From a virus, in the IMG/VR virus record IMGVR_UViG_3300020430_000008, positions 77,218 to 141,217 of that record: 64,000 nucleotides of DNA; one strand, written 5' to 3'. Positions 43,383 through 45,860 of the stretch are shown in pieces; positions within the stretch are counted from its first letter, which is position 1; each line of letters opens with the position of its first letter. Both the position numbers and the translations under genes were made by a program. The notes under the pieces were generated by a model. That model saw nothing but the letters and a program-made list of their open reading frames with translations. It searched no databases and was not told where the DNA came from.

Positions 43383-43457
43383 GCGGTGAGTCTCAATTTA
43401 CTGTTTTATTTTAGGCATGCATGTCAACAGTAGGGATCGAGAATCGATTTTAGTCGC
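43383..43457 (-). ncRNA. Small structured RNA or 3'-UTR hairpin candidate
   Basis: UCUCGAU/AUUGAGA and UACUGUU/AACAGUA stems enclosing a 20-nt loop. Confidence 0.35.
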
Positions 43458-44136: not shown

Positions 44137-44470
44137 TGGTGGAGATGGCGGGAGTCGAACCCGCGTCCAAGATAAATCCAATTCTAGTCATTCACAAGTT
44201 TAGTCAGTTTCTATCAGCCCCTGACAAAGTAGATGGCTATAAGATATCGCTTACCATCCTGTTGCGATAAATGATTTGATTTTTACAACTGCTCTGTTGT
44301 TTTGACCAGATTGGAAAGAAGGCTCTGGTCAGCCTCCCGATTAAGCCGCTAGGCGTGCAGAATCGAAGTGATTGTTGTTATTTGCAACTATTGTTTTTGA
44401 ACTGTTAAGGTCGTATCTAACCTACTTGCACTATTCCTCTTTATTACCCTGTCGAATCCTAGTCATCCCC
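44137..44470 (-). ncRNA. ssrA: tmRNA; tag (A)ANNNNHFDSARLAA at 44341-44385
   Basis: 5' GGGGAUGACUAGGAUUCGAC; 3' GCGGGUUCGACUCCCGCCAUCUCCACCA; G3-U70 Ala acceptor; tag ORF ends LAA-stop. Confidence 0.95.
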
Positions 44471-44686
44471 TTTCTTCTTTCTTTTTTTCTTGGTGATCAC
44501 GCCAAGTGGCTGACCGCTTTCTCCGTCCAGCCAAATGACGATCTCATCCTTACTTTCTTCTTTTACCGCATTGAGATACTGTATCTCTTTCTTTGCCTTC
44601 TTGAGCGCTGCTGATTCGCTGGAGTGACTACTAAGTAGTTCTCCTTGAATATAGTGCCCATCCCATTTCCAGACTTTCCAACTCAT
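44459..44686 (-). CDS. Hypothetical protein; last codons overlap the tmRNA 5' end
   Basis: 75-aa ORF ending GGG GAT GAC TAG. Confidence 0.6.
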   Translation of the reverse strand: MSWKVWKWDGHYIQGELLSSHSSESAALKKAKKEIQYLNAVKEESKDEIVIWLDGESGQPLGVITKKKRKKKGDD

Positions 44687-44712
44687 TTATCTTACTCATG
44701 ATACCCTATCAA

Positions 44713-44909
44713 AACTCTATAAAAGATTGCTAGCACTCCTTGCGTCTAGCTTGCCAGCCTATCTTCAACTACCATCCCTTCTTAACTGTCCTCAATGTCA
44801 TATGAGGCTTCATGCTCTCCGCATGGTCTGGATTCTACTCTGAGATGGTTAGGTTCGTTTTAGGCATTGAACCGACCCTTTGTTTAGTTGTTAAACCCTT
44901 TATAGAGCC
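44713..44909 (-). ncRNA. Unassigned ~195-nt multi-stem structured RNA candidate
   Basis: 14-bp closing stem, six internal helices and a potential pseudoknot; G-U pairs form on the minus strand. Confidence 0.55.
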
Positions 44910-44927
44910 ATGTAGCTTAATAGGCTC

Positions 44928-45272
44928 TCATCTACTATCCTCATTTATAAAAAAAGATTCTGTGTTATATTGCTTAAGGTTTTTATTCAACTCTGATACT
45001 GTGATTCCTAAGAATCTTGCTGCTTCTTTTTTTGAGCGCGTGGCTGACAATGCATATTTAAGAACAGCATCCCTAGTAATCTCTGGTAGTGATTTCCATA
45101 TGGGAAAACCATAGTATTTACCTCTGAGAGATCTAGTACAAAGTTCAAGCTTGAGTGCTATTACTTCTTCTAGTGTTAAAGAATTAATCATGACTTCAAA
45201 TTCGTCACTAATCTTCTTGTCTTTTTGTAGTTTCTTTGATATACTGTAGTATAAATTCTTTCCAGTTTTCAT
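44928..45272 (-). CDS. Protein with C-terminal Fis-like helix-turn-helix
   Basis: AVLKYALSATRSKKEAARFLGITVSEL matches the Fis/HTH_8 pattern. Confidence 0.65.
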   Translation of the reverse strand: MKTGKNLYYSISKKLQKDKKISDEFEVMINSLTLEEVIALKLELCTRSLRGKYYGFPIWKSLPEITRDAVLKYALSATRSKKEAARFLGITVSELNKNLKQYNTESFFINEDSR

Positions 45273-45315
45273 ATTGCCTTCTAGGAAAGAGTTAGTAGAA
45301 CTTAGTAGCAATTAT

Positions 45316-45344
45316 AATATACACTTTTTGGAAGGTCTTGTCAA
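45316..45344 (-). promoter_or_regulatory. Sigma70-type promoter heading the HTH-ncRNA-tmRNA unit
   Basis: TTGACA-17 nt-TATATT. Confidence 0.7.
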
Positions 45345-45383
45345 GCGAAAAATCAGAAAGATTTCGATCATTTGACATTTTCT

Positions 45384-45860
45384 TTACATACTGTGCTGAT
45401 CGTATTTTCTAATCTTGTCGTAAAGGCTCTTCAAAATTGGAAGGATTGATTGACCTTGATATTTCCCAGCAAGTCTTCCATCTGCTTTTAAAGTTTGAAT
45501 GGCTTGAGGAATGTTCTCTCTGCTGGTATTGTTAATAAATTGTTCCCAAGTGTTAGCGATTATAGCGAGGTCATTCGGTGTATCCCTCAGTCCACTAGAT
45601 ACGCGCGCGGGTTCTTGTTGTCTATAGAACTCATCTCTGTGGGGAGGGAACCCTTCCTTTTCTAATGCCTCAGCATCGTAGACATCCTCACGACTATACT
45701 TCTCAGGATTTGCCAGAACATCTCTTGCCCATTCTTCTTGAGTGCGCTCAGAGCCGTCAGGGTTTTTGCCAAACTGCGAATAGCTCCATGCTTCTTGGAT
45801 AAGATAAATATAAATCTCTTCCTGTACAATTTCGTTAAGTTGTGATTCACTAAGTTTCAT
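45384..45860 (-). CDS. Hypothetical protein with MKLSESQLNEIVQEE leader
   Basis: Leader motif shared with neighbours. Confidence 0.7.
   Translation of the reverse strand: MKLSESQLNEIVQEEIYIYLIQEAWSYSQFGKNPDGSERTQEEWARDVLANPEKYSREDVYDAEALEKEGFPPHRDEFYRQQEPARVSSGLRDTPNDLAIIANTWEQFINNTSRENIPQAIQTLKADGRLAGKYQGQSILPILKSLYDKIRKYDQHSM

Follow-up and report, generated by a model that had tools for sequence, protein, structure and literature searches.

A pseudoknotted RNA family absent from Rfam, carried by uncultured marine phages beside a Fis-type HTH gene and often before tmRNA or tRNA-Gly

The manA (RF01745) and wcaG (RF01761) motifs, said to have been described by Weinberg et al. in 2010, are reportedly structured RNAs of phages and metagenomes that contain pseudoknots and lie upstream of diverse genes, sometimes near tRNAs. 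The family described here is likewise pseudoknotted and phage- or metagenome-borne, but the element has no Rfam match to either motif, its architecture and conserved nucleotides differ, and the family, unlike manA and wcaG, is tied to a gene for a Fis-type HTH protein and to tmRNA or tRNA-Gly. A second point of comparison is provided by HK022 put, Bacillus EAR and nut/boxA, which, as is proposed for the family, are promoter-proximal, cis-acting and independent of the downstream gene, and can precede untranslated RNAs. There is no sequence or structure match to any of them, a boxA-like UUUAACAA is clade-specific, and no terminators to override were identified; a put- or EAR-like position fits those loci with a promoter 7-50 nt upstream, and such an activity here is a proposal only. 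In SAM-I-type aptamers, a multi-helix junction is closed by P1, and the last two helices are separated by a strand with which a hairpin loop pairs. This topology matches that of the family, which also has invariant junction nucleotides and one peripheral stem of varying length, whereas the family, unlike these aptamers, has no Rfam match, no common downstream pathway and no recognisable platform, and most of its copies precede tmRNA or tRNA. Finally, the marine myophage Melnitz (141,548 bp) has been reported to carry a two-piece tmRNA with a glutamine riboswitch (glnA RNA) in the ssrA 3' domain (PMC9004378). Melnitz and the phage studied here both have genomes of about 141 kb and an RNA element claimed to control the phage tmRNA. 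Unlike Melnitz, the group of our phage has one-piece tmRNAs (Rfam and ARAGORN), with the element upstream and no glnA match nearby: the glutamine riboswitch models (RF01739, RF01704) found nothing at E<=10, at E<=5 near the tmRNA, or at E<=1 in 14 relatives.

The locus lies in a window of 64,000 nucleotides (the whole stretch of DNA that was analysed) from a 141,217-bp IMG/VR virus record with PhoH and glycosyltransferase genes and many orphan genes, which has no close relative among 50,697 GenBank phages. The minus-strand order is promoter, HTH gene, RNA, 75-codon ORF, tmRNA, and then a second promoter with a gene for an FKBP-type isomerase:

45316-45344, minus strand: sigma-70-like promoter TTGACA-17-TATATT, 11 of 12 matches, preceding the HTH gene
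44928-45272, minus strand: gene for a 114-aa Fis-type HTH protein (Pfam HTH_8, E 3.9e-4, a weak match below the cut-off)
44909-44713, minus strand: the flagged RNA element, 197 nt
44459-44686, minus strand: ORF75, a conserved 75-aa gene with a basic C-terminal tail, between RNA and tmRNA, with homologues in 9 loci
44137-44470, minus strand: complete one-piece tmRNA, Rfam 127.6 bits, tag ANNNNHFDSARLAA

The promoter at 45316-45344 is the sole strong one upstream of the RNA within the window. The HTH gene, of which more than 170 loci have a homologue, constantly adjoins the RNA family on the upstream side, and tblastn found no homologue of its product in the 50,697 GenBank phages; together with the one-piece tmRNAs and the lack of glnA matches, this indicates a different element in a different uncultured group from that of Melnitz. 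Nor did near and distant searches with the DNA of the element find a relative among GenBank phages. The sequence-only reading had seen on the minus strand, between a Fis-like HTH gene and tmRNA, a multi-stem RNA with a pseudoknot that it could assign to no family; the position holds, but ORF75, which separates the RNA from the tmRNA, had been overlooked. ORF75 belongs to no Pfam or PHROG family and its Atlas matches are viral hypothetical proteins only, while the exact protein is indexed in 78 blocks of public assemblies, including one 150-kb Tara Oceans contig. Its 3' end (AAA GGG GAU GAC UAG) overlaps the tmRNA gene by 12 nt (44459-44470, minus strand, tmRNA positions 1-12), so that ribosomes finishing ORF75 would unwind the 5' strand of the tmRNA acceptor in the precursor. 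The end of the HTH gene also contains TATAAAT, a T4-type late promoter core, at 44943-44949 (minus strand), 34 nt before the RNA; three relatives (L094, L095 and L097) have an extended -10 at this site instead (TGTGTTATAAT or TATGTTATAAT).

The element folds far better than shuffled sequences, with a minimum free energy (MFE) of -58.3 kcal/mol against a shuffle mean of -43.6 (z -3.84, none of 200 shuffles as good), while its complementary strand reaches a z of only -1.19. The MFE fold includes the closing stem, the GGUUC/GAACC hairpin, the ACCAUCUC/GGGAUGGU stem with its two inner hairpins, CAACU/AGUUG and the 3' hairpin. From folding and comparison with relatives, the helix order is P1, Pa (with its loop), insert, pseudoknot strand, Pb and P1':

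44908-44894 / 44728-44714, minus strand: P1, the closing stem, 15 bp with 3 G-U, from folding and covariation
44901-44894, minus strand: 5' strand of the family-wide core P1, the inner 8 nt; 8 of 8 core pairs change on both sides
44852-44873, minus strand: Pa hairpin GGUUC-AAUGCCUAAAAC-GAACC (stem 44873-44869/44856-44852), from comparison of relatives
44865-44861 / 44761-44757, minus strand: pseudoknot between GCCUA of the Pa loop and UAGGC, from covariation
44754-44768, minus strand: conserved junction strand UUGAAG-AU-AGGC-UGG, containing the pseudoknot 3' strand UAGGC
44771-44849, minus strand: clade-specific three-way insert domain, occupying the single variable site of the family
44849-44842 / 44778-44771, minus strand: insert stem ACCAUCUC/GGGAUGGU
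44825-44811, minus strand: hairpin CAUGC/GCAUG in the insert, a variable element
44807-44790, minus strand: hairpin CCUCA-UAUGACAU-UGAGG in the insert
44729-44750, minus strand: Pb, the 3' hairpin GCUAG(ACGC-AAGGA-GUG)CUAGC, with a purine-rich GYGARR-type loop

Four further loci carry the entire element together with ORF75, one 99% identical to the window (L098) and three at 73-75% (L097, L095 and L094). Their alignment has 92.9% of its cells paired and double changes at 12 pairs, and pairing falls to 41-49% when the partner strand is slid by one column. The stem proposed to enclose two hairpins is paired in all cells (100%) and compensatory in 4 of its 8 pairs (CCAU/AUGG to CUGU/ACAG), and within the pseudoknot C-G is replaced by U-A or U-G. 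Other parts of the proposed fold survive in a reduced form. Both inner hairpins are present in the window and CCUCA/UGAGG covaries to CCC/GGG, but CAUGC is a variable stem, since it is absent in L094 and L095 and longer in L097. CAACU/AGUUG, although found in the MFE fold, is weak, with only 80% of cells paired and a single covarying pair, and we saw it only in the window's clade. The closing stem, first drawn with 14 bp and two G-U pairs, is present and has one pair more, but only its inner 8 bp and outer 4 bp are common to the relatives, in which the window-specific middle is an internal loop. The hairpin proposed to compete with it exists, at 44927-44905, but only in the window and L098, and the in-context MFE fold extends the closing helix instead.

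The insert stem has a further feature, in that CCAUCUC/GGGAUGG (44842-44849/44771-44778, minus strand) repeats six consecutive base pairs, including a G-U, of the phage's own tmRNA acceptor stem (44470-44464/44147-44141). Such a likeness would be expected if the element derived from or mimicked tmRNA, as a piece of a permuted two-piece tmRNA or as an acceptor-stem decoy, and alignments to the permuted tmRNA model RF04321 do start within Pb in relatives. The part upstream is, however, poorly aligned, and the score stems from the genuine tmRNA 5' part. No tmRNA model matches the element, all matches being confined to 44470-44137, where the tmRNA is a complete one-piece gene. In L094 and L097, moreover, the insert stem is unlike their own acceptor stem (GGGGGCG/CGCCUCC), and most family members have no insert. 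As the relatives do not track their own tmRNA, we reject acceptor mimicry, the likeness in the window being probably due to chance, and consider a tmRNA origin very improbable.

Ordinary one-piece phage tmRNAs, in the window (44341-44500, minus strand) and in L061, L073, L054 and L058, also reach RF04321 scores of 48.8-57.9 bits, above the gathering cut-off of 47, which could explain "two-piece tmRNA" calls for marine phages. Sub-threshold matches to the wcaG motif (30-33 bits against a cut-off of 42) fall inside the pseudoknot-rich tmRNA 3' domain of three relatives (L033 1419-1513, L136 2153-2249 and L073 3255-3351), which hints at a possible relationship between wcaG-like RNAs and the pseudoknots of phage tmRNAs.

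To what extent the element belongs to a known RNA class can be judged from Rfam 15 (4227 families), searched over the region 44400-45400. The element had no match even at E<=10, 6S RNA included, and at the gathering score the window contains tmRNA and tRNA only. Fourteen relatives likewise had no Rfam match on the element, and a minimal relative (L073 2945-3075) gave only a chance lncRNA match at E<=10. About 10,000 unnamed candidate RNAs from IMG/VR have been catalogued, and the motif may be among them (PMC10690425). The sequence-only reading had speculated on a group I-like topology, P3-P7-P8-P9 without P4-P6, and a core of this or of the lariat-capping kind would account for the presence of a pseudoknot and for the loose resemblance of two short strings to the R and S elements, but for nothing more. 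These strings are in fact the Pa hairpin and loop and the pseudoknot strand. No group I model (RF00028-type) matches at E<=10, helix and strand order differ, P4-P6 is missing, and we identified no G-binding pocket of the P7 kind. The element is also intergenic, without a host gene or exon contexts, and its core shrinks to about 110 nt in relatives; we regard a group I-like core as scarcely credible.

A new self-cleaving ribozyme, which would separate the HTH mRNA from the downstream tmRNA, tRNA or mRNA, deserves more attention. The size of the element, its pseudoknot, invariant junction purines and variable peripheral stem resemble small self-cleaving ribozymes, its position is intercistronic, and phages are known to carry ribozymes next to tRNAs, both theta/HDV-like ribozymes and hammerheads. 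On the other hand, models of hammerhead, twister, twister-sister, pistol, hatchet, HDV-like, hairpin and glmS ribozymes have no match at E<=10, the CUGANGA...GAAA core is absent from the conserved positions, and the strand order of pistol and HDV folds differs from that of the element. RNase P, furthermore, already cuts before tmRNA and tRNA. Self-cleavage thus appears improbable to us. A hammerhead-like CUGAUGA in one relative (L005) was dismissed as a coincidence, being confined to that sequence.

A wider set of relatives was gathered through searches with the HTH protein, giving 173 loci from IMG/VR and JGI/ENA metagenomes; from the metagenome collection, 80 of more than 479 HTH relatives were taken in. 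The spacers of the more distant loci revealed a small conserved core, which is widespread in contigs (about 140-205 kb) of uncultured marine phages and shrinks to minimal versions of about 110 nt. The core begins with P1 (8-15 bp), followed by a variable joiner usually starting UA and by Pa, with the pairs UUC...GAA and the loop AWUG-NCUCU-AAC. Between Pa and the pseudoknot strand lies a single variable site of 2-95 nt, often a hairpin. The junction strand U-U-R-A-A-R-(N)-GAGNC-URG comes next and leads, after 2-6 nt, to Pb, with its GYGARR-type purine-rich loop, and to P1'. The middle 84 nt of the window element, a three-way domain, are thus an optional insert at the variable site, another point that the first reading had missed, and the window copy, a large-insert variant, is the most elaborate member of the family.

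The covariance model R1 was built and used to align 32 distinct sequences, in which 87.2% of cells pair, compared with 64.6 +/- 1.2% in shuffles and at most 52% when the partner is slid; two-sided changes are seen at 21 of the 24 pairs. Collecting homologues, as had been suggested at the outset, therefore places compensatory changes behind most helices. The pseudoknot proposed between GCCUA and UAGGC is a 5-6-bp helix formed family-wide by the Pa loop and the downstream UGAAG-GAGNC-URG strand (94.8% of cells paired, 5 of 6 pairs covarying), and occurs as GACUC/GAGUC, GGCUC/GAGCC, GUCUC/GAGAC or GAGGC, GCCUA/UAGGC, GUCUA/UAGAC, GGCUU/AAGCC, GUCUU/AAGAC, GGUUC/GAACC and GUCAC/GUGGC. In the Pa stem, which corresponds to the proposed GGUUC/GAACC hairpin, the loop-closing U-A and C-G pairs never vary among the 32 sequences, and 29 of these also keep the next U-A. 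The proposed 3' hairpin GCUAG/CUAGC is present as Pb. Since U-G pairs are frequent, the transcribed strand is fixed. A subgroup of 11 sequences (L014, L042, L049, L076, L121, L124, L126, L133, L151, L164 and L166), aligned separately by MAFFT with no model fitting, is 94.9% paired with 18 covarying pairs. It also contains an extra 6-bp helix, P0, in which UUCUAG/CUAGAA changes to CCAAG/CUUGG or CCUGUG/CGCAGG, and which brackets the P1 5' strand and a conserved GCUAAA. P0 either forms a second pseudoknot or takes the place of P1; as both helices covary, they may coexist rather than alternate. Taken together, these data show the structured RNA family to be real and well supported; Rfam does not contain it, and its architecture is settled.

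Three other readings of the alignments were dropped. A family-wide CCUCA...UGAGG hairpin, taken from a MAFFT alignment, gave way to GGUUC...GAACC as the homologous hairpin; positions 57/58 of a T-loop read into UUCAAUG vary (UUCAUUG, UUCCAUG); and an alternative UUCA/UGAA pairing is contradicted by UAAAG in many members. A decamer of the Pa loop (AUGCCUAAAA, 44867-44858) recurs in a hairpin that follows the FKBP gene (43383-43457, minus strand, loop AUGCAUGCCUAAAA); the near-identical L098 keeps this loop while the stem differs. The second loop could be a rival for the pseudoknot strand UAGGC, could be bound by the same partner, or could have arisen by chance (about 0.1 expected).

With one exception, the family is found directly 3' of the Fis-type HTH gene on the same strand, and accepted model matches start within about 130 nt of the HTH stop codon. 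The exception is a second, divergent copy of 24 bits in a complete 185-kb relative (L180 1501-1659; G002:C1:181545-181703), which lies between small ORFs and precedes a 98-aa ORF, with no HTH gene or tRNA adjoining; the window's own 141-kb genome has no second copy. We found no evidence of the family outside phage contigs when bacterial genomes were searched with the exact 18-nt Pa pattern, which matched 27 times compared with about 70 expected by chance. These matches score about 17-33 bits on the covariance model, mostly from the 18-nt pattern itself, and we take them as chance because the four that were inspected (L187, L193, L194 and L202) have neither the pseudoknot strand nor P1. Downstream sequence was sufficient in 122 distinct HTH variants, of which about 65 carry the motif, 29 have a promoter and a 40-105-nt gap before the tmRNA and nothing else, and 28 have other inserts; in the motif-less loci, the promoter stands directly before the tmRNA. 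Presence of the motif clusters on the HTH tree (21 changes against 40.5 in shuffles) and extends over many deep clades, in keeping with inheritance that is mainly vertical and punctuated by repeated loss or gain.

What follows the RNA falls into two main arrangements. In about 30 loci tmRNA or tRNA-Gly starts 10-31 nt after P1, and in about 20, the window included, an ORF begins 8-120 nt after it. These ORFs represent at least seven unrelated families, among them ORF75 (nine loci, including the window), tubulin/FtsZ-like, redoxin-like lipoprotein, cytidylyltransferase, epimerase and small orphan proteins. Upstream, about 11 loci have a strong sigma-70-type promoter (11-12 of 12 matches) at a distance of 7-50 nt from P1. 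There are other loci, among them the window, in which no such promoter is present and P1 abuts or overlaps the HTH stop codon; in these the RNA must be made with the HTH mRNA. In the window, with no strong promoter between the HTH gene and the RNA, the element is probably an intercistronic segment of that mRNA.

The short and constant spacing of 10-31 nt to the mature 5' end of tmRNA or tRNA-Gly in about 30 loci would also be expected of a stable, stand-alone non-coding RNA, co-transcribed with the tmRNA or tRNA precursor, freed by RNase P, trimmed of its 10-31-nt tail as far as P1 and acting in trans, for example on a host or phage protein, perhaps the HTH protein, that it would bind or titrate. 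There is a precedent in the CI RNA of satellite phage P4, a small structured RNA that RNase P cuts from a leader and that acts on transcription, although it bears no likeness to the element in sequence or structure. A promoter close to P1 in many loci, the compact closed fold with invariant loops, the strict synteny with the HTH gene and a function that would be independent of the downstream gene are all in keeping with this possibility. It accounts less well for the approximately 20 loci, the window among them, in which an ORF lies downstream and no RNase P site would set the 3' end, for the absence of a terminator after P1, and for the many HTH genes without the RNA. We consider a stand-alone RNA possible but on the whole unlikely.

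We tentatively prefer, at somewhat less than an even chance, a cis-acting leader as the role suggested by the sequence comparisons. The RNA would be made as the 5' leader of the downstream transcript, and its pseudoknotted core would bind a ligand or protein. The moving parts would be 5' helices that compete with or bracket P1, namely P0 in one subgroup and the hairpin at 44927-44905 in the window, and whether P1 forms would set the polymerase read-through or RNA processing that reaches the downstream RNA. The element would in this way act as a gene-independent leader switch, with a logic analogous to that of riboswitch or antitermination leaders. Several features are aptamer-like, namely the invariant junction and loop nucleotides, the single insertion site of variable length, the covarying P1 and, in the subgroup, the P0 that brackets the P1 5' strand. 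Of what is generally looked for in a riboswitch, the family thus has an aptamer-like core with covarying stems and invariant junction nucleotides, but not downstream genes of one pathway, since what follows is tmRNA, tRNA-Gly or an ORF from one of at least seven unrelated families. Downstream of P1 we found no conserved terminator or anti-terminator and no RBS-sequestering platform; competing or bracketing 5' helices do exist. Since RNase P would cut the leader from tmRNA or tRNA, translational or stability control would make no sense there, leaving control of transcription or processing. The irrelevance of the downstream gene's identity, and the fact that it is usually an untranslated RNA, also argue against translational control and against a pathway-specific metabolite riboswitch. 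Against a cis-acting leader stands the finding that about half of the related loci do without the element.

Two simpler leader devices were rejected. P1 with a U-tract could be read as an intrinsic terminator, but the U-rich linker is found in motif-less loci as well and is therefore part of the tmRNA leader. Leader peptides, for which short ORFs before or over P1 in several clades were considered, show no common sequence or position. The window has an ATGA-coupled mini-ORF, MRAY*, at 44917-44931 (minus strand) before P1; short ORFs with a Shine-Dalgarno sequence just before P1 occur in L094, L095 and L097 (MSREYWS*, MWVCQHFYWS* and MRKLNIYWS*), and in L154, L157 and L138 mini-ORFs extend into the P1 5' strand. 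Directly after P1, at 44887-44894 (minus strand), the window's clade has UUUAACAA, which we take to resemble the 3' half of the rrn boxA consensus and which is not conserved across the family as a whole.

Covariation of this strength, together with so many invariant nucleotides, usually marks an RNA that binds a ligand or a protein or acts as a catalyst. tmRNAs encoded by phages are a rarity, and in a large group of uncultured marine phages about half have an elaborate, strongly conserved pseudoknotted RNA immediately ahead of tmRNA or tRNA-Gly. The family is well defined and could be proposed to Rfam, and its minimal versions of about 110 nt suit biochemistry. If the element were a stand-alone RNA, it would be a new phage ncRNA with a built-in RNase P maturation route. 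If it were a switch, it would reveal how phages set the timing or dose of their interference with ribosome rescue in the host. That it constitutes a new functional RNA class of abundant ocean phages, be it a ligand-sensing riboswitch, a polymerase-modifying antitermination RNA or a self-cleaving ribozyme, which gates production of tmRNA and tRNA-Gly, is in our estimation a doubtful prospect, perhaps one chance among several; were it true, this would be the first RNA switch known to control a ribosome-rescue RNA.
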